Assembly: GCA_934748015.1 (NCBI GenBank)
Contig: CAKVHF010000001.1
Location: forward strand, 188,663-252,662
Direction of reading: 5' to 3'
DNA length: 64,000 bases
From: an uncultured Clostridia bacterium
GTDB taxonomy: Bacteria > Bacillota > Clostridia > Christensenellales > UBA1242
The position numbers were made by a program, and so were the translations under genes. This document shows positions 11,399-51,326 of this stretch, piece by piece. Each line of letters begins with the position of its first letter. Positions within the stretch are counted from its first letter, which is position 1. The notes beneath the pieces are model-generated. The model was not told where the DNA came from and searched no databases. It saw nothing but the letters and a program-made list of their open reading frames with translations.

Positions 11399-11410
11399 AC
11401 AAAGGATTAA

Positions 11411-11505
11411 TATTATCGGAAGTCAGAAGAAAGCAGTGCGAAGCAATATTTTCTTATGACTGATGTTTATTCAATCTATGTAACCACAATTTATTGTGGA
11501 TTTGC
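11411..11505 (+). repeat. Structured 95-nt element, tandem copy 1 (upstream of the ABC exporter genes)
   Basis: Conserved 5' TATTATCGGAAGT. Hairpin with 11-nt arms (11422-11432 / 11450-11460) and a 17-nt loop. Conserved 3' CTGATGTTTATTCAATCTATGTAACCACAATTTATTGTGGATTTGC, which includes the CCACAAT-TTA-TTGTGG palindrome. Confidence 0.6.
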
Positions 11506-11558
11506 GTTTAGCAAATTGGTTTGCGAATGCAATGAACAAATCAACATCACATAGATTA

Positions 11559-11653
11559 TATTATCGGAAGTTGTCGGCAAACAGCCCAAAGAGATACTTG
11601 CCAGCAACTGATGTTTTTTCAATCTATGTAACCACAATTTATTGTGAATTTGC
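11559..11653 (+). repeat. Structured 95-nt element, tandem copy 2
   Basis: Same length and same flanks as copy 1, 148 nt downstream. The hairpin arms have different sequence (GTTGTCGGCAA / TTGCCAGCAAC) but the same arm length and the same 17-nt loop length. Confidence 0.6.
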
Positions 11654-11697
11654 AATTATTATAAAAATAAAATATCAATAAAAAAAAGGAAAATAAA

Positions 11698-14029: not shown

Positions 14030-14150
14030 GTAAATATTATGCAAAATATTTTGAATTTTACAAAATATGTGCAATACTATTCGTGTTATGAATAATATGT
14101 TTTTTGATAACATTTTAATAGGCGAAAATATGTTGTTAGACACTCTAACA

Positions 14151-14276
14151 ATGTCTATTTTTAGTCGTTTTGCTGAAGTAAACGGGGGGGGGGTATTACT
14201 AGATAAAACTAGCAATATCTTAACTTATATAACTAAATATTTCGATCATAACAACTTAAGTCGAGAGTGTTTTTAG
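14151..14276 (+). CDS. Candidate leader mini-ORF A (41 aa) running through the G10 tract and stopping in the terminator loop
   Basis: ATG 14151 lies at the 3' foot of the hairpin. It reads ...EVNGGGVLLDK...NNLSRECF, with TAG at 14274-14276 inside the terminator loop. There is no clear Shine-Dalgarno, so coding status is unproven. Confidence 0.3.
   Translation: MSIFSRFAEVNGGGVLLDKTSNILTYITKYFDHNNLSRECF
14184..14193 (+). repeat. Homopolymeric G10 tract in leader A
   Basis: Counted directly: aac-GGGGGGGGGG-tattactagataa. The homologous tract in copy B is G6. Confidence 0.95.
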
Positions 14277-14296
14277 CCGACTTAGGTTGTTTTTTC
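14250..14296 (+). terminator. Intrinsic terminator/attenuator in leader A
   Basis: AACAACTTAAGTCG (14250-14263) pairs with CGACTTAGGTTGTT (14278-14291), 14 bp including one G-U, followed by TTTTT. Confidence 0.75.
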
Positions 14297-14330
14297 GTTT
14301 GTTATAGAGTGTAGTTGTAATATTGGTAAT

Positions 14331-14415
14331 GGCTGTGGGGCGACCACTGGCGTGGTCTAGTGGGCAAAAACTTTTGCCCACATGCGAGCCTTTCGGCTCG
14401 CATTGCCCCACAGCC
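14331..14415 (+). ncRNA. GC-rich four-way-junction (cloverleaf-like) element, copy A; class unknown
   Basis: P1 GGCTGTGGGGC / GCCCCACAGCC encloses three hairpins: GACCAC-TGGC-GTGGTC, GTGGGCAA..TTGCCCAC and ATGCGAGCC-TTTC-GGCTCGCAT. It is a GC-rich island in AT-rich DNA, with a second copy at 47131-47211. Confidence 0.5.
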
Positions 14416-14516
14416 TCTGCACATAATTAACCAAACTAATTATTTCAGAAATACATAACAAAAACATATTTTAAACAAAATTTCACATTATAAATTATAA
14501 GGAGAAATTACATATA

Positions 14517-16670
14517 ATGACGAAAAATAGAAAAATGTTGGCATTGGCTATCGCACTGGTTATTATGTTAGTAACCGTCAGTGGCACACTTATTGCAGTG
14601 CTAGTTGCTAGTAACCAGAGTGCCCAGTCCAAGGTGCATGTTAAGTACACTAGCAGTGATGTCAATGTCAAGGTTGAGGCAAAATACTATGTCGGATCAA
14701 CTGGTACAGACATGGTAGACAAGAGCAATAGCAATGCAAAATCAATAGAACTGGATGCTAATAAGACTTCAGGTTCACTTGATCAACTTGCATCTGAGGT
14801 CTCACTAAGCAAAACTAATAGCAAAATAATTTATGAATATAAGTTTACTAACTTATCTACAACTATCCCAGCCACTATTGGTCAGTTGGTTGAAAATGGC
14901 AGTGTAGTTGTTCCAAAAGATAGCAATAACAATGTGAAACTAACATATACATCATCGTCATCATCACTAGGTGCTGGAGCAAGCAGTGATGCTACAACTC
15001 TTAACACCCAAGGTCTTCCAGCAGGAACAACAAGATATGTCTATGTTATTGTGTCTATTGTAGAATTACTTAACGATGTAGACTTCGAGGGTACATTTGG
15101 CTGGGATCTAGCAAAAGGTGAGGCTATTACATCCAATACAACTGGAGGAAGCCAATCTATCGTTGTAGACACCACAGACGTGAAATTGTATAACAAATCT
15201 GCTATGGAGAATATACAATTGGTAGTAGGAGTAGAGAACACCGAACCTGACTACCCAATGATAGAAGATAAATGCTTTACAGGGTGGTATTCCGATTCTG
15301 GCCTTAACAATAAGGTAGAATTTCCAATCATCCCAACCGCCGATACTATACTATATCCTAAGCACGAGACAGCGACAAGCGACCTGACATATATGTACGA
15401 GTCAGAATCTTATGCTGTAGGCGATGACACCTTTGGGTATCAGGGCTCAGAGACAGATATTGTTATTCCTGATGTATATGATGATGGAACAAATGGATTA
15501 CATCCTGTTACAAGGATATCATGGTGTGCTTTTGAGTTTGAAGAAGCGTCCGATATGGTTCAAGTAGACATAAATAGTATCTACATGCCTAACACTATAA
15601 CGGAAATAGGCGAGATGGCTTTTTATGAATGCAGAATATCAAGTATTTTCATTCCGTCCAGTGTAACCATTTTACAGTATACTGCAATTAGTACTTGTCC
15701 AAACTTAACTAATATAGAAGTAGACAGTAATAATGCAACATATCGTAGTGAAAGTAATTGTATAATAGATAGGGCTACTAATGAGTTGGTATATGGCTGT
15801 GTTAACTCTAATATACCAGAAAGTGTCACTAGTATAGGATCTTCTGCCTTTTCTGATTGCAGTGGCTTAACAAGTATAACCATTGGATCAGGTGTCACCA
15901 GTATAGGGGATTCTGCCTTTTCTGGATGCAGTGGCTTAACAAGTATAATAATTCCAGATAGTGTAACTAGTATAAGTGATTCTGCCTTTTCTGGATGCAG
16001 TGGCTTAACAAGTATAACAATTTCCAATAGTGTCACTAGTATAGGATCTTATGCCTTTGATGGATGCAGTGGCTTAACAAGTATAACAGTATCTAGTGGT
16101 AACACAGTATATCGCAGTGAAGGAAATTGTATAATAGAGAAATCCTCTAATACATTAATACTAGGTTGTAAAAATTCAATTATTCCTAGCGGTGTCATCA
16201 GTATAGGGATGAATGCCTTTTTTGATTGCAGTGGCTTAACAAGTATAACAATTCCAGATAGTGTAACCAGTATAGGGGAGAATGTCTTTCGAAATTGCAG
16301 TGGCTTAACAAGTATAACCATTGGATCAGGTGTCACCAGTATAGGGATAAGTGCTTTTTCTTATTGTAGTGGCTTAACAAGTATAACAATTCCAGATAGT
16401 GTCACCAGTATAGAATACTCTGCCTTTTCTGATTGCAGTGGCTTAACAAGTATAACTATAGGTAGCGGAGTGAAACACATAGGAAACAACGCATTTAGCA
16501 ATTGTTCAAAACTAACTAGTGCAACTTTTAAGAATACAACCGGCTGGACTGTAACCACCTCTAGCACAGCAACGACTGGTACAGCAGTAACAATATCAAC
16601 AACTGATCTTGCTGCCAATGCGACACTATTGAAAACTACACATGTAAGTAAGTATTGGAACAGAGCATAG
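14517..16670 (+). CDS. Membrane-anchored surface protein, paralog 2 (717 aa; N-domain + Listeria/Bacteroides-type repeat + long BspA-type LRR array)
   Basis: RBS AAGGAG. Signal anchor MTKNRKMLALAIALVIMLVTVSGTLIAVLVA. Contains CFTGWYSD...LYPK. About 9 near-identical 23-aa LRR units (SVTSIGxSAFSxCSGLTSITI). C-terminal tail NATLLKTTHVSKYWNRA. Confidence 0.85.
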   Translation: MTKNRKMLALAIALVIMLVTVSGTLIAVLVASNQSAQSKVHVKYTSSDVNVKVEAKYYVGSTGTDMVDKSNSNAKSIELDANKTSGSLDQLASEVSLSKTNSKIIYEYKFTNLSTTIPATIGQLVENGSVVVPKDSNNNVKLTYTSSSSSLGAGASSDATTLNTQGLPAGTTRYVYVIVSIVELLNDVDFEGTFGWDLAKGEAITSNTTGGSQSIVVDTTDVKLYNKSAMENIQLVVGVENTEPDYPMIEDKCFTGWYSDSGLNNKVEFPIIPTADTILYPKHETATSDLTYMYESESYAVGDDTFGYQGSETDIVIPDVYDDGTNGLHPVTRISWCAFEFEEASDMVQVDINSIYMPNTITEIGEMAFYECRISSIFIPSSVTILQYTAISTCPNLTNIEVDSNNATYRSESNCIIDRATNELVYGCVNSNIPESVTSIGSSAFSDCSGLTSITIGSGVTSIGDSAFSGCSGLTSIIIPDSVTSISDSAFSGCSGLTSITISNSVTSIGSYAFDGCSGLTSITVSSGNTVYRSEGNCIIEKSSNTLILGCKNSIIPSGVISIGMNAFFDCSGLTSITIPDSVTSIGENVFRNCSGLTSITIGSGVTSIGISAFSYCSGLTSITIPDSVTSIEYSAFSDCSGLTSITIGSGVKHIGNNAFSNCSKLTSATFKNTTGWTVTTSSTATTGTAVTISTTDLAANATLLKTTHVSKYWNRA
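15822..16530 (+). repeat. Intragenic tandem 69-nt (23-aa LRR) repeats, near-identical at the DNA level
   Basis: The core tgcagtggcttaacaagtataac recurs about every 69 nt in two blocks (about 15822-16097 and about 16190-16530). Confidence 0.85.
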
Positions 16671-24632: not shown

Positions 24633-24669
24633 TATGTCGCAAAAGCATTATTTTGTGGCATATTTTTTT
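24633..24669 (+). terminator. Intrinsic terminator; copy 1 of a 37-nt identical direct repeat flanking the phase-variable paralog
   Basis: tATGTCGCAAAA-GCATTA-TTTTGTGGCAT + T7 (stem includes G-U pairs). Identical to 25950-25986. Confidence 0.75.
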
Positions 24670-24800: not shown

Positions 24801-25941
24801 ATGAATACAACAAGAAAAATGTCTTTAGCCTTGGTGCTATTGTGCGTGACACTGGCTATTACTGTGATGACATTAGGATTGGTATTGGTTTCTGGAACTC
24901 AAGATGTAATAACCGACCTAGATATTCATTATGCGGGGGGGGGGTGTCACTTTTGAAGTAGGTGATGACTGCATTAACAAGAGTGACTTTGCAACCATCA
25001 AAGTTGACAAGGTTACTAAGACTGCTGTCGTACAACAACCAGCCAATCCCAATCAGTTAGGCAAAACATTTGAGGGCTGGTACACAGATAGTAGTATAAC
25101 TCAGAAGGTAGATAAGTTCCCTGTAACTCTATCTAAGGGTGATGTGCTATATGCCAATTATTATGATGCATCCACATGGCTGACATTGTCTTGGAATGCT
25201 ACAACTAGTTCATACTCTGTCGAAAGGAGTAGCTCGTCTTCTGCAACAGAGGCAATAATTCCAGATATATATGACGATGGGACACATGGGGTTGCAGTGG
25301 TTGATACTATAGGATCATATTCGTTGACTGATGTAACAACTTTGACCAATATTTATTTGTCTAACAACATCACAACAATTAGCGAGAGGGCTTTTTCCGC
25401 TTGTGCTAATGTAACTGCAATTAATGTTCCGGAAAATGTTGCTACAATCGGTGCATATTGGCTACAAAATATGAAAAAGCTAAAAACCATAAATTGGAAT
25501 GCAATAAATGCGGAGTACACTGCAGAATTTTCGCAAACATATAGTGTTGGTTCGCAATACGGAATTGACTTTGTTGTTGGTTACAAAGTGCAGAGTATTC
25601 CTAGATATTTGTTCAATCCACAATCTTCAAAATCTTATGTTAAATCTATTGATATGACCAATGCTACATCGCTAAAGGAAATTGGATCTTGGGCTTTTGG
25701 TGGTTGTTATAAGATAACATCTCTTACAATTCCTGCCAGTGTAGAATTGATTGGAGCATATGCTTTTACCGAATGTACTGGTTTATCCAGTATAACATTT
25801 GAAGTATCAGATAACTGGTATAGATTTTCATCCGAGACAGCAACCACTGGTGGAACTGCGTTGTCTTTAGGCTCTGCTTATACTGATGCTAAATGGATAA
25901 GAGATACTTATGCACAATATTGGTGGAGAAGAATTTCATAA
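24801..25941 (+). pseudogene. Surface protein paralog 3, split by a G10 tract (currently frameshifted; candidate phase-variable gene)
   Basis: ATG 24801 follows AAGGAG and encodes the signal anchor MNTTRKMSLALVLLCVTLAITVMTLGLVLV. This frame ends at TGA 24954-24956, just after G10 (24935-24944). The -1 register continues as VTFEVGDD...FEGWYTD...LRR units...YAQYWWRRIS through 25941. G9 or G12 would fuse both parts. Confidence 0.75.
24935..24944 (+). repeat. Homopolymeric G10 tract inside the paralog 3 coding sequence
   Basis: Counted directly: cattatgc-GGGGGGGGGG-tgtcac. Confidence 0.95.
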
Positions 25942-25949
25942 ATAATTTT

Positions 25950-25986
25950 TATGTCGCAAAAGCATTATTTTGTGGCATATTTTTTT
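25950..25986 (+). terminator. Intrinsic terminator; copy 2 of the 37-nt identical direct repeat
   Basis: Identical to 24633-24669; followed by T8. Confidence 0.75.
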
Positions 25987-35334: not shown

Positions 35335-36954
35335 ATGACAAAAAGTAAAAAAATGTTAGCCTTAGTCATTGCATTAGTTGTTATGTTGGTTGCAGTCAGT
35401 GGTACACTTATTGCAGTACTGGTTGCTGGCAACCAGAGTGCCCAGTCTAAGGTACATGTTAAGTACACTAGTAGTGATGTCAATGTTAAGGTAGAGGCTA
35501 AATACTATGTTGGATCAACTGGTACAGACATGGTAGACAAGAGCAATAGCAATGCAAAATCTATAGAACTGGATGCTAATAAGACATCAGGTTCACTTGA
35601 TCAACCCGCATCTGAGGTCTCACTAAGCAAAACTAATAATAAAATAATATACGAATATAAGTTTACTAACTTATCCACAACCATCCCAGCCACTATCGGT
35701 CAGTTAGTTGAGAATGGCAGTGTTGTTGTGCCAAAAGATAGCAATAACAATGTGCATCTAACATACACATCATCATCATCCGCACTAGGTTTAGGAGCAA
35801 CTAGTGACGCAACTACACTTAACACGCAAGGTCTTCCAGCAGGAACAACAAGATATGTATATGTTATTGTATCTATTGTAGAACTACTTAATAATGTAGA
35901 CTTTGAGGGCACATTTGGCTGGGATCTAGCAAAAGGTACTACTGCTAGCCTAGATACAACAGGTAGCGGAAATAGTATCGTTAATGTTAACACATCTCAG
36001 ACAGGTTTCTACAACGCAGCATCACTACAAAATATAGACCTTATGGTAGGTGTAGAGAACCAAGAACCAGATATCTATCCAATGATAGCTAACAAATGCT
36101 TTACAGGTTGGTACACCAATTCTGCACTTACAACCAAAGCAGTCTTCCCTATGGTAGTTACTGCGGATACTAAGTTGTATCCAAAAAATGAAACTGCCAC
36201 GAGTGGGTTGGTTTATGGGTATAGTGCCTCATCACAAACATATCACATAGGTGATGGAAGTTCATCTTTTGCAGGAACTGCAACAGAAATTATAATTCCA
36301 GACATGTTTGATGATGGCACTAATGGATTAAAAGAAGTAAAAAGTGTTTATCCAGAGGCTTTTAGTGGTTGTGTGAATATATCAGAAGTTGTTTTTCCTA
36401 AGAATTTAGTAGCTATTGGTAGATACGCATTTGACGGATGTTCAAGTTTAACAAGCATTAATCTTCCAAAAGGGTTGATAGAACTTAATCGCTATGCGTT
36501 TAAAGATTGCAATAATGTAAAAAGTATAATAATTGAAAGCGAAAATCTTATGACATTTGATAATAGTGTTTTTTATAATTGTAGTAAGAGTTTAGTCAGT
36601 ATCAAAGTAACATCTAGCAGTTTATATCTAAGATCTGAAGGAAACTGCTTAATAGATACAAGGTATAATATACTGCTTATAGGATGTCGAAATTCAGTTA
36701 TACCTAATTATATAACAGATATTGCACCATGGGCATTTTACAATTGTAAACAATTATCAAATATTAATATACCTGTAAGTGTAGAGTATATTGGCAATGA
36801 AGCATTTTATGGTTGTGACAATTTAACTAGTGTTGTATTTGATGATACAATTGGTTGGAAATCTGGAGGGACGAGTATTGACATTTCTAAAGTAGATTAT
36901 ACTGCGAACGCATTGTTATTAAGAACTGCAGATGGTTCATTTTCTAAATCATAA
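35335..36954 (+). CDS. Membrane-anchored surface protein, paralog 4 (539 aa)
   Basis: RBS GAGGAG. The first ~200 codons are nearly identical in DNA to paralog 2 (MTKSKKMLALVIALVVMLVAVSGTLIAVLVAGNQSAQSKVHVKYTSSDVNVKVEAKYYVGSTGTDMVDKSNSNAKSIELD...). Contains CFTGWYTN...LYPK and divergent LRR units. Lacks the KYWNRA tail. Confidence 0.85.
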   Translation: MTKSKKMLALVIALVVMLVAVSGTLIAVLVAGNQSAQSKVHVKYTSSDVNVKVEAKYYVGSTGTDMVDKSNSNAKSIELDANKTSGSLDQPASEVSLSKTNNKIIYEYKFTNLSTTIPATIGQLVENGSVVVPKDSNNNVHLTYTSSSSALGLGATSDATTLNTQGLPAGTTRYVYVIVSIVELLNNVDFEGTFGWDLAKGTTASLDTTGSGNSIVNVNTSQTGFYNAASLQNIDLMVGVENQEPDIYPMIANKCFTGWYTNSALTTKAVFPMVVTADTKLYPKNETATSGLVYGYSASSQTYHIGDGSSSFAGTATEIIIPDMFDDGTNGLKEVKSVYPEAFSGCVNISEVVFPKNLVAIGRYAFDGCSSLTSINLPKGLIELNRYAFKDCNNVKSIIIESENLMTFDNSVFYNCSKSLVSIKVTSSSLYLRSEGNCLIDTRYNILLIGCRNSVIPNYITDIAPWAFYNCKQLSNINIPVSVEYIGNEAFYGCDNLTSVVFDDTIGWKSGGTSIDISKVDYTANALLLRTADGSFSKS

Positions 36955-46848: not shown

Positions 46849-46975
46849 ATAAAAATTTGTGAAATATTTAATTTTATTTTGAAAAAATATATGATTGTGA
46901 CATAATATAAGTATGAGGAAAAATGTTTGCATTTATAGTTTAATAAGAGATTTTACATTGTTAAATGTTTTAACA

Positions 46976-47098
46976 ATGGCTTCTTTTAGGCAAGATGTAA
47001 TAGTTCAACGGGGGGTATTACTAGATAATTCTAGTATTATCATAACCGATATAACTCAATATAACGATAATAACAACTTAAGTCGATGGTGTTTCTAG
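46976..47098 (+). CDS. Candidate leader mini-ORF B (40 aa) running through the G6 tract and stopping in the terminator loop
   Basis: ATG 46976 lies at the hairpin foot. It reads ...VQRGVLLDN...NNLSRWCF, with TAG at 47096-47098 in the terminator loop. No clear Shine-Dalgarno. Confidence 0.3.
   Translation: MASFRQDVIVQRGVLLDNSSIIITDITQYNDNNNLSRWCF
47010..47015 (+). repeat. Homopolymeric G6 tract in leader B
   Basis: Counted directly: caac-GGGGGG-tattactagataa. Confidence 0.95.
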
Positions 47099-47118
47099 GC
47101 AACTTAGGTTGTTTTTTC
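47072..47118 (+). terminator. Intrinsic terminator/attenuator in leader B
   Basis: AACAACTTAAGTCG (47072-47085) pairs with CAACTTAGGTTGTT (47100-47113), followed by TTTTT. Confidence 0.7.
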
Positions 47119-47130
47119 GTATTTTTTATA

Positions 47131-47211
47131 GGCTTTGGGCGACCACTGTCGTGATCTAGCGGGCGTTTCCGCCCACCATGCGAGCCTTTTTGGCTCGCAT
47201 GACCCAAAGCC
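47131..47211 (+). ncRNA. GC-rich four-way-junction (cloverleaf-like) element, copy B; class unknown
   Basis: P1 GGCTTTGGG / CCCAAAGCC encloses GACCAC-TGTC-GTGATC, GGGCG-TTTC-CGCCC and ATGCGAGCC-TTTTT-GGCTCGCAT. P1 differs from copy A by a compensatory G:C to T:A change. Confidence 0.5.
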
Positions 47212-47313: not shown

Positions 47314-49389
47314 ATGATAACAAAAAACAGAAAAATGCTAGCGTTGATAATTGCATTGGTTATAACATTGGTTTCGGTCAGTGGGACTCTTATTGCAGTA
47401 TTGGTTATCAGCAACCAGAGTGCACAATCAACAGTTCATGTTAAATATACCAGTACTGATGTTAACGTAAGAGTAGAAGCTAAGTATTATGTAGGTACGA
47501 CAGGTACAGACATGGTAGACAAGAGCAATAGCAATGCAAAATATCTAGATTTAGATGCTAATAAAACATCAGGTTCTCTTGATCAACCATCTAACGAAGC
47601 GGTCGAGCTAAGCAAAACTAATAACAAAATAATCTATGAATACAAGTTCACCAACTTATCTACAACTATCCCAGCAACTATAGGTCAGCTGGTCGAAAAT
47701 GGCAATGTTGTTGTTCCAAAAGACAGCAATAACAATGTAAAACTAACATATACATCGTCTTCAACATCCCTAGGTTCAGGAGCAACTAGTGACGCAACTA
47801 CACTTAATACCCAAGGACTTCCTGCAGGTACAACAAGATATGTCTATGTTATTGTGTCTATTGTAGAACTACTTAATGATGTAGATTTTTCTGGCAGTTT
47901 TGGTTGGGATCTAGCGAAAGGTGAGGCTATTACATCCAATACAACTGCAGGTAGTCAATCTATCGTTGTAGACACCACAGACGTGAAATTGTATAACAAA
48001 TCTGCTATGGAGAATATACAATTGGTCGTAGGAGTAGAGAACACCGAGCCGGACTACCCAATGATAGAAGACAAATGTTTTACTGGTTGGTATACTGATG
48101 AAAGTTTAGAAACTAAAGCAGTTTTTCCATTAACTCCAACTGCTGAAACCAAATTGTATCCTAAGTATGAAACAGCAACAAGTGATCTTACTTATGTGTA
48201 TAATGAAGCATCACAAAGCTATTTTGTTGGGGATGGAACTACATCATATTCCGGGTCGACAAAAAATATTGTTATTCCTGATACATATAACAATGGAACC
48301 AATGGATTACATGCGGTAACATGTATTAACGATTGTGCGTTTTTAAAAACTAGTATTATTAGTGGTATTGTAATTCCAGGTTCTGTTAGTAATATAAGTA
48401 TAGGAGATAATAGGGCATTGAAAGGCGGCATAACTACAGTGTCTGTATCTTCGGCTAATCCTGTATATAAGAGTGAGAATACATGTATAGTACGCAAGGC
48501 TGATAATTGCTTAATATACGGAGGCCAGAAATATGATATACCAAAATATGTAACATCAATATATGATTATGCATGTTTTGGTTCATATGCTACAACAATT
48601 GCATTAAGAGAAGGTGTTGTTAGTATTGGAAGGCATGCTTTTTATAATAATAAGTTTGCTGAGCTTATTATTCCATCTAGTGTTGTCAATATTGATGAAT
48701 TGGCATTCTCTTCTTGTATGCACTTAAAAAGGGTTACTTTTAAAGAAGGCTTACTTAGTATAGGAAAAGAGGCATTTAGAGGCTGTGTTTCTCTAACAAG
48801 TGTTACAATTCCGAGCACAGTAACCAGTTTGGATCGTCTAGCTTTTATTAATTGTACAGCATTAAATTCTTTTTGGGTTTCAGATAATAACAAAGTGTAT
48901 AAGGGTGAAAGTAATTGTGTAATGTTAAGAGCAGAACCTACTGTTTTGTATTGTTGTTTTGCAAATGGTACTATTCCTGCCTATATAACTAAAATAGGTG
49001 ATTATGCATTTTACTATAATACGGCACGTGGCTCGCTTCATATACCAAAATCTGTAACGGAAATAGGTGTTAGTGCTTTTGAATCTTCTTCAATTAAGGG
49101 TAGCGTCGTTATACCAGATAGTGTAATTACTATTGGAAATTCTGCTTTTAAAAGCTGTAACATAACAAGTGTGACAATTGGTAATGGCGTTAAAAGTATA
49201 GGGGTAAACGCTTTTTATTATTGTGGTAACTTAACAAATATTACATTCAATACAATAACTGGCTGGACTGTCACAAATGACAGTAGCGCAACCACTGGAG
49301 ATCCAGTTACCGTGTCAAAATCTGATACAAAAGCTAATGCGACACTACTAAGAACAACACATGCAAGTAAATATTGGCACAGGGCATAG
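47314..49389 (+). CDS. Membrane-anchored surface protein, paralog 5 (691 aa)
   Basis: Signal anchor MITKNRKMLALIIALVITLVSVSGTLIAVLVI, the family N-domain, CFTGWYTD...LYPK, a divergent BspA-type LRR array, and the tail ANATLLRTTHASKYWHRA. Confidence 0.85.
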   Translation: MITKNRKMLALIIALVITLVSVSGTLIAVLVISNQSAQSTVHVKYTSTDVNVRVEAKYYVGTTGTDMVDKSNSNAKYLDLDANKTSGSLDQPSNEAVELSKTNNKIIYEYKFTNLSTTIPATIGQLVENGNVVVPKDSNNNVKLTYTSSSTSLGSGATSDATTLNTQGLPAGTTRYVYVIVSIVELLNDVDFSGSFGWDLAKGEAITSNTTAGSQSIVVDTTDVKLYNKSAMENIQLVVGVENTEPDYPMIEDKCFTGWYTDESLETKAVFPLTPTAETKLYPKYETATSDLTYVYNEASQSYFVGDGTTSYSGSTKNIVIPDTYNNGTNGLHAVTCINDCAFLKTSIISGIVIPGSVSNISIGDNRALKGGITTVSVSSANPVYKSENTCIVRKADNCLIYGGQKYDIPKYVTSIYDYACFGSYATTIALREGVVSIGRHAFYNNKFAELIIPSSVVNIDELAFSSCMHLKRVTFKEGLLSIGKEAFRGCVSLTSVTIPSTVTSLDRLAFINCTALNSFWVSDNNKVYKGESNCVMLRAEPTVLYCCFANGTIPAYITKIGDYAFYYNTARGSLHIPKSVTEIGVSAFESSSIKGSVVIPDSVITIGNSAFKSCNITSVTIGNGVKSIGVNAFYYCGNLTNITFNTITGWTVTNDSSATTGDPVTVSKSDTKANATLLRTTHASKYWHRA

Positions 49390-50655: not shown

Positions 50656-50732
50656 CGGGGTGTAGCGCAGTTTGGTAGCGCACATGATTTGGGATCATGG
50701 GGCCGGGAGTTCGAGTCTCTTCACCCCGACCA
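50656..50732 (+). tRNA. tRNA-Pro (anticodon UGG)
   Basis: Manual cloverleaf: acceptor CGGGGTG/CACCCCG, anticodon arm CATGA-TTTGGGA-TCATG, T-loop TTCGAGT, encoded CCA. Confidence 0.9.
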
Positions 50733-50749
50733 CTTATCTAATGCAATTT

Positions 50750-50826
50750 GGGCCTTTAGCTCAGTTGGTTAGAGCAACCGGCTCATAACCGGTTTGTCCG
50801 GGGTTCAAGTCCCTGAAGGCCCACCA
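50750..50826 (+). tRNA. tRNA with CAU anticodon (elongator Met or lysidine-modified Ile2)
   Basis: Acceptor GGGCCTT/AAGGCCC, anticodon arm CCGG-CTCATAA-CCGG, T-loop TTCAAGT, CCA. The body resembles Firmicute tRNA-Ile2(CAU), but identity cannot be fixed by eye. Confidence 0.85.
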
Positions 50827-50854
50827 AAAAATTGTTTTAGATATTTATATATAT

Positions 50855-50931
50855 GGCCTGGTAGTTCAGTTGGTTAGAACGCTAGCCTGTCACGCTAGAG
50901 GTCGAGAGTTCGAGTCTCTTCCAGGTCGCCA
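50855..50931 (+). tRNA. tRNA-Asp (anticodon GUC)
   Basis: Acceptor GGCCTGG/CCAGGTC, anticodon arm CTAGC-CTGTCAC-GCTAG, T-loop TTCGAGT, CCA. Confidence 0.9.
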
Positions 50932-50939
50932 TTATGTCT

Positions 50940-51015
<76 letters not shown>

Positions 51016-51050
51016 TATTACATTATCAATTGATAGATAACATATTATAT

Positions 51051-51126
51051 GCTGGTGTAGCTCAATAGGTAGAGCAGCTGACTTGTAATCAGCAGGTTGT
51101 GGGTTCGATTCCTATCACCAGCTCCA
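51051..51126 (+). tRNA. tRNA-Thr (anticodon UGU)
   Basis: Acceptor GCTGGTG/CACCAGC, anticodon arm GCTGA-CTTGTAA-TCAGC, T-loop TTCGATT, CCA. Confidence 0.9.
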
Positions 51127-51241
51127 ACCAAACATCGAAAAAGTTAAATTGAATATAAAATAACTTATTTTTTTTATTTTTTCATATTCAACTCTATCTC
51201 CTTTCTAAATTTACCTTTTTTTGATGTTTGACAACTTATTT

Positions 51242-51326
51242 GGGAGAGTTCCAGAGCGGCCAAATGGAACAGACTGTAAATCTGTCGTCTCAGACTTCGT
51301 TGGTTCGAATCCAGCCTCTCCCACCA
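51242..51326 (+). tRNA. tRNA-Tyr (anticodon GUA), class II with a long variable arm
   Basis: Acceptor GGGAGAG/CTCTCCC, anticodon loop CTGTAAA, long variable arm, T-loop TTCGAAT, CCA. Confidence 0.88.

Follow-up and report, generated by a model that had tools for sequence, protein, structure and literature searches.

What is a GC-rich, cloverleaf-like structure doing between a transcription terminator and the gene of a surface protein, and does it belong to any class of element already described? The question is raised by an 85-nt segment at positions 14331–14415 of the 64-kb stretch of DNA analysed here (the window). A preliminary description had noted it as a high-GC island in AT-rich DNA; its GC content is 0.62, against 0.34–0.40 for the window. 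This segment (copy 1; assigned to the plus strand from gene context only) can be folded into a closing helix of 11 bp, P1 (14331–14341 with 14405–14415; GGCTGTGGGGC/GCCCCACAGCC), and three hairpins, H1 (14342–14357; GACCAC-TGGC-GTGGTC), H2 (14360–14381; GTGGGCAAA-AACT-TTTGCCCAC) and H3 (14382–14403; ATGCGAGCC-TTTC-GGCTCGCAT). The dinucleotide TA separates H1 from H2, and a single T follows H3. A second copy of 81 nt (copy 2) lies on the same strand at 47131–47211, with P1 at 47131–47140/47202–47211, H1 at 47141–47156, H2 at 47159–47176 and H3 at 47178–47200. Compared with copy 1, a G:C pair of its P1 is exchanged for U:A, its H2 is shorter and rewritten, and its H3 keeps an identical stem with a loop of 5 nt. 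All these changes had been listed in the preliminary description, whose sequence, coordinates and architecture for both copies proved exact. RNAfold reproduced the fold: the minimum free energy structure coincided with the centroid and with the four-helix fold both in copy 1 (–64.4 kcal/mol, z = –9.8) and in the plus strand of copy 2 (–47.5 kcal/mol, z = –7.3), and none of 200 shuffled sequences reached the fold energy of the element. When the whole window was scanned with a descriptor set to loose thresholds (three or more hairpins, a closing helix of 7 bp or more and a stable fold), it returned the two element loci and the tRNA genes, and nothing else. The element is a real feature, and chance does not explain it. 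Its helices are all perfect, with no internal loops (P1, 10–11 bp; H1, 6 bp; H2, 7–9 bp; H3, 9 bp), the hairpin loops have 4–5 nt, and the junction linkers measure 0/2/0–1/1 nt. The zero-length linkers predict that the helices would stack coaxially in two pairs, P1 on H1 and H2 on H3, each of ∼17–18 bp.

The element had been described as matching no known family, and the databases bore this out. Rfam 15 gave no match at the gathering threshold, and searches at E ≤ 10 with copies 1 and 2 and one copy of a further subfamily (B, see below) returned only noise below threshold, such as sRNA162 (18 bits, the threshold being 78). It had likewise been held not to be a tRNA; ARAGORN and the Rfam model RF00005 reported six tRNAs at 50656–51326, and neither recognised the element. 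It shares with tRNAs, tRNA-like cloverleaves and the enterovirus 5′ cloverleaf the layout of an 80–90-nt four-helix junction made of a closing helix and three hairpins, but differs from them in its tetraloops, its linkers and the absence of D and T loop motifs; these features, together with its stem and loop lengths, led to the rejection of a tRNA or tRNA-like identity. Other candidates were rejected as well. An intrinsic terminator would need a T-run after P1, which is absent from either strand, and a terminator scan called none at the ends of the element. The R′/R″ core sites of an integron attC site are missing, and the annotated neighbourhoods contain no reverse transcriptase or recombinase, as a retron, a diversity-generating retroelement (DGR) or an invertible switch would require. 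On these grounds the four readings were dropped; in addition, the copies are repeated in direct orientation, 33 kb apart, with essential genes in between.

Four-way junctions form the scaffold of several riboswitches and of the hairpin ribozyme. The element sits in a 5′ leader, where such an RNA might be expected, and a ribozyme-like fold had been among the earlier suggestions. That the element is a ribozyme or riboswitch with a four-way junction core is nevertheless very improbable: it has no Rfam match at any threshold, its helices are perfect and capped by tetraloops, no expression platform overlaps it, and its linkers and loops, rather than being conserved, are its most variable positions (linkers TA/TG; none/C/T/A; T/G; all three loops vary).

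Further copies were sought outside the window. Exact-pattern scans of genome, metagenome and viral contigs gave chance matches only, the patterns being too strict for subfamily B; these were a Chlamydiales contig containing the H1 string only (L001), an rplL terminator (L002) and a phage hairpin (L017). After these scans had failed, relatives were reached through BspA-type proteins, and from these through their contigs. In this way five variants came to light beyond the two described at the outset, giving seven variants at six loci. They form three subfamilies: A (copy 1; 84 bits with the covariance model), C (copy 2; 92.5 bits) and B, which comprises c3 (L012 19393–19472), c4 (L016 470–549), c5 (L018 9773–9852) and c6 (L018 19701–19780). 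The last two lie on a single 1.08-Mb scaffold that also carries the window loci, so that a genome has at least four copies. The species of the window occurs in several gut metagenomes, that of the 1.08-Mb scaffold among them, and within it the element is identical save for 1 nt in the H3 loop of a 97.6%-identical strain (L021). Whether the copies always accompany this surface-protein family had been left as a question; all known copies precede a BspA-type gene. Away from the junctions between leader and BspA gene, the covariance model built from the seven variants found none in 179 kb and nhmmer found none in about 330 kb, the DNA covered amounting to roughly 10–15% of the genome. The small leader ORF, when used as a search probe, matched the same species only, and the strings of the invariant stems were absent from the literature and from the supplements of a human-microbiome structured-RNA catalogue that were searched. 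The element is thus a structured element not described before, known so far from a single rare gut lineage and a single genomic setting, and it is best filed as a variant among cis-acting structured leader or intergenic modules, outside any named family. A distribution as narrow as this would escape standard comparative RNA discovery.

The host is a rare low-GC gut bacterium with sporulation-type genes, and the 90% cluster of its LepA protein has six members only. The N-terminal domain of the BspA-type proteins is also very rare, with 7–10 clusters among 5.8 billion proteins. It spans ∼285 aa, has no Pfam match and is common to four paralogues in the window (14517–15400, 959–1800, 35335–36200 and 47314–48200); all 10 relative clusters come from this lineage.

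The preliminary description had proposed a discrete conserved unit with unrelated flanks. The identity values agree with this: between subfamilies they were 77–89% for the element, 75–84% for the adjacent coding sequence, 57–69% for the leader and 48–57% for the flanking spacers, the last being the level of shuffled sequences. Between copies 1 and 2, the spacers that separate the element from the start codons showed 56.8% identity, against 55.5% when shuffled, so that the element stands as an island of conservation between spacers that cannot be aligned. In the four-helix structure 96% of the cells were paired, compared with 32–38% in slid controls. The compensatory exchange reported earlier in P1 held, and in all three pairs were found to have changed on both sides (P1 G:C to U:A, P1 G:C to A:U and H2 G:C to A:U). 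In addition, one pair of P1 was lost on both sides at once, and H2 was remodelled, three A:U pairs giving way to one G:C with the hairpin kept. Among closely related copies, six of eight recent independent substitutions fell at unpaired positions, which make up 16 of the 80 positions (20%; binomial P = 0.0012). Less favourably, the column-shuffle control was not significant (61/500), and the stems of H1 and H3 are invariant across the three subfamilies, so that they show no covariation. These data indicate a fold under selection for pairing, with thin covariation support drawn from three independent subfamilies.

The invariance of the H1 and H3 stems could reflect sequence-specific recognition, or merely the slow evolution of GC-rich stems. 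The first possibility would make the element a platform on the leader RNA for a sequence-specific protein (for example RNase III, a regulator of translation or a processive antitermination factor), bound through H1 (GACCAC/GTGGTC) and H3 (ATGCGAGCC/GGCTCGCAT). These two stems stay constant over three subfamilies in which P1, H2 and all loops change, the predicted coaxial stacks of ∼17–18 bp would be nearly as long as an RNase III substrate, and long surface-protein genes lie downstream. We nonetheless consider such a platform rather unlikely. The annotated neighbourhoods of the copies contain no candidate gene for the partner, the bulges and internal loops of known antitermination RNAs (put, EAR) are absent, and a short divergence time combined with the cost of breaking GC-rich stems may suffice to explain the invariance.

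The setting of the element was the same for all copies, which share one order and one orientation of parts: a promoter, a small ORF with a poly-G tract, a strong hairpin followed by a T-run, the element, a spacer, a ribosome-binding site and a gene for a BspA-type leucine-rich repeat (LRR) surface protein. The distance from terminator to element ranges from 4 to 40 nt, and the AT-rich spacer after the element measures 100–150 nt. The gene that follows copy 1 (14517–16670, plus strand) encodes 717 aa with an N-terminal transmembrane or signal segment (Pfam LRR_5, E = 1e-76) and is separated from the element by an AT-rich spacer of 101 nt; that following copy 2 (47314–49389, plus strand) encodes 691 aa (LRR_5, E = 6e-50) and is reached after an AT-rich spacer of 102 nt. 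Upstream of copy 1, the leader ORF extends over 14088–14276 of the plus strand (62 aa from the ATG at 14088); in L006 it was called as a gene. This ORF includes a G10 tract (14184–14193), and its stop codon, TAG at 14274–14276, falls within the loop of the terminator hairpin. This terminator (14250–14295, plus strand), read from the sequence, consists of 14-nt arms (AACAACTTAAGTCG/CGACTTAGGTTGTT), a 14-nt loop and a T-run, and was missed by the scan tool because the latter limits loops to 8 nt. It ends 35 nt upstream of the element and is conserved at copy 2 and at other leaders. At copy 2, a promoter-like sequence (TTGAAA-16-CATAAT with a TG extension, 46879–46906) precedes an ORF of 61 aa (46913–47098, plus strand) that bears a G6 tract (47010–47015) and also stops in the terminator loop. 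The terminator, again read from the sequence (47072–47117, plus strand), is 84% identical to that of copy 1 and lies 13 nt before the element.

The position of the stop codon relative to the terminator depends on the poly-G tract. In nine of nine leaders, one poly-G frame stops 5–26 nt before the T-tract, that is, in the terminator hairpin, and the other frames stop 72–96 nt upstream. Alleles of the copy 1 leader differ within the species: the G10 tract of the window gives the long ORF, and a G9 tract in strain L021 gives 37 aa, as does protein P0002, which is an independent call of the G9-allele leader sequence. Tracts elsewhere are G6, G9, G10 or interrupted; the leaders in L016 (G10), in L012 at 9.7 kb (G9) and in L019 (G10) are in short frames, and some subfamily-B tracts are interrupted and thereby locked in the long frame. 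Between the element and the start codon of copies 1 and 2 no promoter-like site was found on the plus strand, so that the simplest assumption is that the BspA genes rely on the leader promoter and on read-through; the subfamily-B spacer does contain a weak plus-strand promoter-like site. In Streptococcus gallolyticus, a change in repeat length in the pil1 leader moves the stop of the leader peptide into a premature terminator, where ribosomes prevent termination (Danne et al. 2014, PMC3894217). The leader described here looks like a poly-G version of this phase-variable attenuator, attached to several BspA paralogues. Both have a simple repeat in a leader ORF that sets the position of the stop relative to a terminator, upstream of a gene for a surface structure. 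They differ in that the repeat of pil1 is GCAGA, that the leaders here are multi-copy and serve several paralogous BspA genes, and that no four-way junction follows the terminator of pil1 (PMC3894217). BspA-like proteins have also been reported to phase-vary through repeats in Ca. Mycoplasma girerdii (PMC5476646). Given a poly-G phase-variable attenuator as the leader, placing the element in the 5′-UTR would be the most natural reading.

Leaders of this kind were seen in the window at 14040–14300 and 46880–47120, and elsewhere at L012 9700–9930 and 19120–19350, L016 200–430, L018 9510–9730 and 19440–19660, and L019 15590–15840. By eye, the ATG of the leader ORF lies a few nucleotides past an extended –10-like TGTGnnATAnT, and the mRNA may thus be leaderless or nearly so. 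Two hairpins within the ORF are maintained across leader types by compensatory changes, one at 14128–14150 of the window and homologous positions (TTGTTAG..CTAACAA versus TTGTTG..CAACAA) and one after the poly-G tract, at 14194–14215 (TACTAG..CTAGTA versus GTACTAC..GTAGTAC versus TATCCTT..AAGGATA). They are kept while the peptide is poorly conserved there, so that RNA structure may be a further means by which the leader acts.

BspA genes do not all carry these parts. Paralogues without any leader start in the window at 959 and 35335, and others were found in L013 and at L019 10001. Two homologous leaders enter their gene without the element (L012 9700–10003 and L019 at ∼15.6 kb), so the element is dispensable, an optional module of the leader. 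A link to the duplication of the paralogue cassette, as proposed in the preliminary description, finds no support here, since at these same two loci homologous cassettes of leader and gene vary between strains without the element. When copy 1 was compared with the elementless L012 leader, homology ran through the terminator and resumed at AAATACATA... in the distal spacer, leaving a surplus of ∼149 nt in copy 1 (14301–14449), in which 31 nt precede the junction and 33 nt follow it. An extended pairing was sought in these 31- and 33-nt flanks, and no conserved structure was found; complementarity of the loops to ribosome-binding sites, judged by eye, was inconsistent among copies. As a separate observation, comparison of L012 8700–11600 with L018 600–2000 showed that a cassette of leader and BspA gene (encoding P0003, and without a four-way junction) lies between the yhbY-side genes and ylxM/ffh in one strain, and that the genome of the window lacks it at the syntenic position. 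Strains that are ∼97% identical thus differ in their BspA repertoire.

The presence of the element in one leader and its absence from a close homologue could point to a palindromic unit acting at the DNA level, a selfish element or relic of the REP/BIME or MITE type, kept by fold-back of single-stranded DNA, by cruciform extrusion or by gene conversion, and with no function in the mRNA. The sharp island of conservation between unrelated flanks would fit such a unit, as would the 149-nt indel, the 10–11-bp inverted repeat that P1 forms at the ends, in the manner of terminal inverted repeats, and the prediction of the same fold on both strands with DNA folding parameters. The species also contains a second, unrelated insertion with a four-way junction (L014 8341–8638). 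We regard this origin as unlikely. The flanks of copies 1 and 2 and of c3–c6, when read, showed no target-site duplications; the indel ends 31 and 33 nt beyond P1 and not at the ends of the element; and all known copies occupy a single context in a single orientation, with none elsewhere in 179 kb by the covariance model, nhmmer or the structural scan. Searches of plasmid and phage collections with blastn gave noise only, no transposase or RAYT gene occurs in the annotated neighbourhoods, and compensatory changes in P1 would not be expected of ends bound by a transposase. REP/BIME, BOX and STAR-type repeats resemble the element as intergenic GC-rich nested palindromes located just past a terminator, which exceed the genome in GC content and can stabilise the adjacent mRNA; they have no sequence similarity to it, and a genome holds tens to hundreds of them, dispersed over many contexts and both orientations, whereas the element has at least four copies per genome, all those known being at one type of junction and in one orientation. 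MITEs such as Correia and RUP share its small size, its terminal inverted repeat and its presence or absence at related loci, but the element has no target-site duplication, no dispersed copies were found in the DNA searched, its indel boundaries are displaced, and its termini covary as a helix.

The insertion in L014 belongs to a second, AT-rich family of structured repeats, seen at 11410–11660 of the window, at L014 8341–8638 and at L021 500–600, whose units start with ATATTATCNGAAGT and end with CACATAGATT. The window has ∼1.6 tandem units and strain L021 one unit. In strain L014, two modules form an insertion of ∼295 nt upstream of lepA that is missing from the window at ∼43798, and the 3′-most 79 nt fold into an 11-bp closing helix with three hairpins and linkers of 0/2/0/1 nt (z = –6.5). 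This insertion gave no Rfam match, no sequence similarity to the GC-rich element and no match to its covariance model. Since neither the covariance model nor nhmmer recognises the L014 junction, the shape that the two have in common is not evidence of homology.

The context of the genes and the constant co-orientation with them favour the plus strand as the one on which the element would act. Folding energies lean the other way. Copy 2 reached –57.7 kcal/mol on the minus strand, against –47.5 on the plus strand, because three C.A mismatches of the latter become U.G wobbles on the former, and RNAalifold gave –59.8 for the minus and –54.9 for the plus strand. A rival reading makes the element the structured 5′ part of an antisense RNA that would begin in the AT-rich spacer and run back over the terminator and the leader ORF. 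It is only on the minus strand that the junction of copy 2 is perfect and that GAAA tetraloops appear, and on this strand the spacers of all three subfamilies contain promoter-like sites directed towards the element. Such sites numbered 4–8, against 2.4–3.9 expected; they are neither conserved nor aligned, their distances vary (∼30–70 nt), and sites of this kind are common, and here not in excess, for AT-rich DNA. Moreover, the minus strand has no U-tract terminator, the evidence from wobble pairs all comes from one sequence, and in subfamily B there are U.G pairs, located at the base of H3 and in an extension of P1, that form on the plus strand only. A minus-strand RNA is accordingly improbable.

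The reading that we tentatively prefer, with somewhat less than even confidence, is that the element is a cis-acting and purely architectural RNA module in the 5′ leader of the BspA-type mRNAs, which would serve in stability, processing or insulation. Transcription would start at the promoter of the small leader ORF. In the poly-G frame whose stop lies inside the terminator hairpin, ribosomes would disrupt the terminator and RNA polymerase would read through, the GC-rich four-way junction of 80–85 nt being the first structure transcribed past it. The junction would fold as the two coaxial stacks, P1 with H1 and H2 with H3. We infer its transcription on the plus strand, and its role as stabiliser or insulator, from this arrangement: after an endonucleolytic cleavage the stable fold would be a barrier or landmark that shields the AT-rich, ribosome-free leader and the coding region from 5′-to-3′ decay of the RNase J type, and/or it would isolate the ribosome-binding site from the upstream attenuator. 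In the ON phase, expression would rise through either of these effects. The features seen that relate to such a role are the position upstream of the ribosome-binding site and the stability of –47 to –64 kcal/mol. Against this reading, two homologous leaders do without the element, and a block on the 5′ side could already be provided by the terminator hairpin.

In Firmicutes, stable structures close to the 5′ end are known to stabilise mRNAs (aprE, ermC, cryIIIA STAB-SD, SP82). The aprE leader hairpin, ermC, the cryIIIA STAB-SD and the RNase III site of SP82 resemble the element in that a very stable structure precedes the ribosome-binding site in the leader, is of a purely structural kind (none of its unpaired nucleotides is conserved) and belongs to a gene that is highly expressed or codes for a surface protein. 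The known cases, however, are located at the 5′ end or close to it and consist of one hairpin or an SD-like sequence, whereas the element is a predicted four-way junction more than 200 nt from the putative start of transcription, past the terminator of a putative attenuator. It is also conceivable, although unlikely, that the element represents a new class of bacterial RNA, either a self-contained junction that blocks exonucleases or is recognised by a protein, is released or exposed by processing of the phase-variable surface-protein mRNAs and sets their stability, with a function parallel to that of viral xrRNAs or 5′ cloverleaves, or a stable trans-acting RNA the size of a tRNA. If the module does tune the fate of the mRNA, control of a host-facing, adhesin-like multigene family in an uncultured gut bacterium with a small genome would comprise, besides the phase-variable attenuator, a further layer at the post-transcriptional level, and the module would constitute a compact, portable and purely structural part for RNA stability or insulation. 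Were it merely a selfish palindrome, it would still flag the sites from which a variable set of surface proteins is expressed.

Another surface-protein gene of the window also carries a poly-G tract. At 24801–25941, an LRR gene is split by a G10 tract (24935–24944), so that the N-terminal signal or transmembrane part (ATG at 24801) stops just past the tract and the body (24931–25941) lies in the +1 frame. A G9 tract would fuse both parts, and the gene appears to phase-vary in the classical intragenic manner, its present state being OFF. On both sides of this gene lies an exact direct repeat of 37 nt that resembles a terminator hairpin (TATGTCGCAAAAGCATTATTTTGTGGCATATTTTTTT), at 24633–24669 and 25950–25986.
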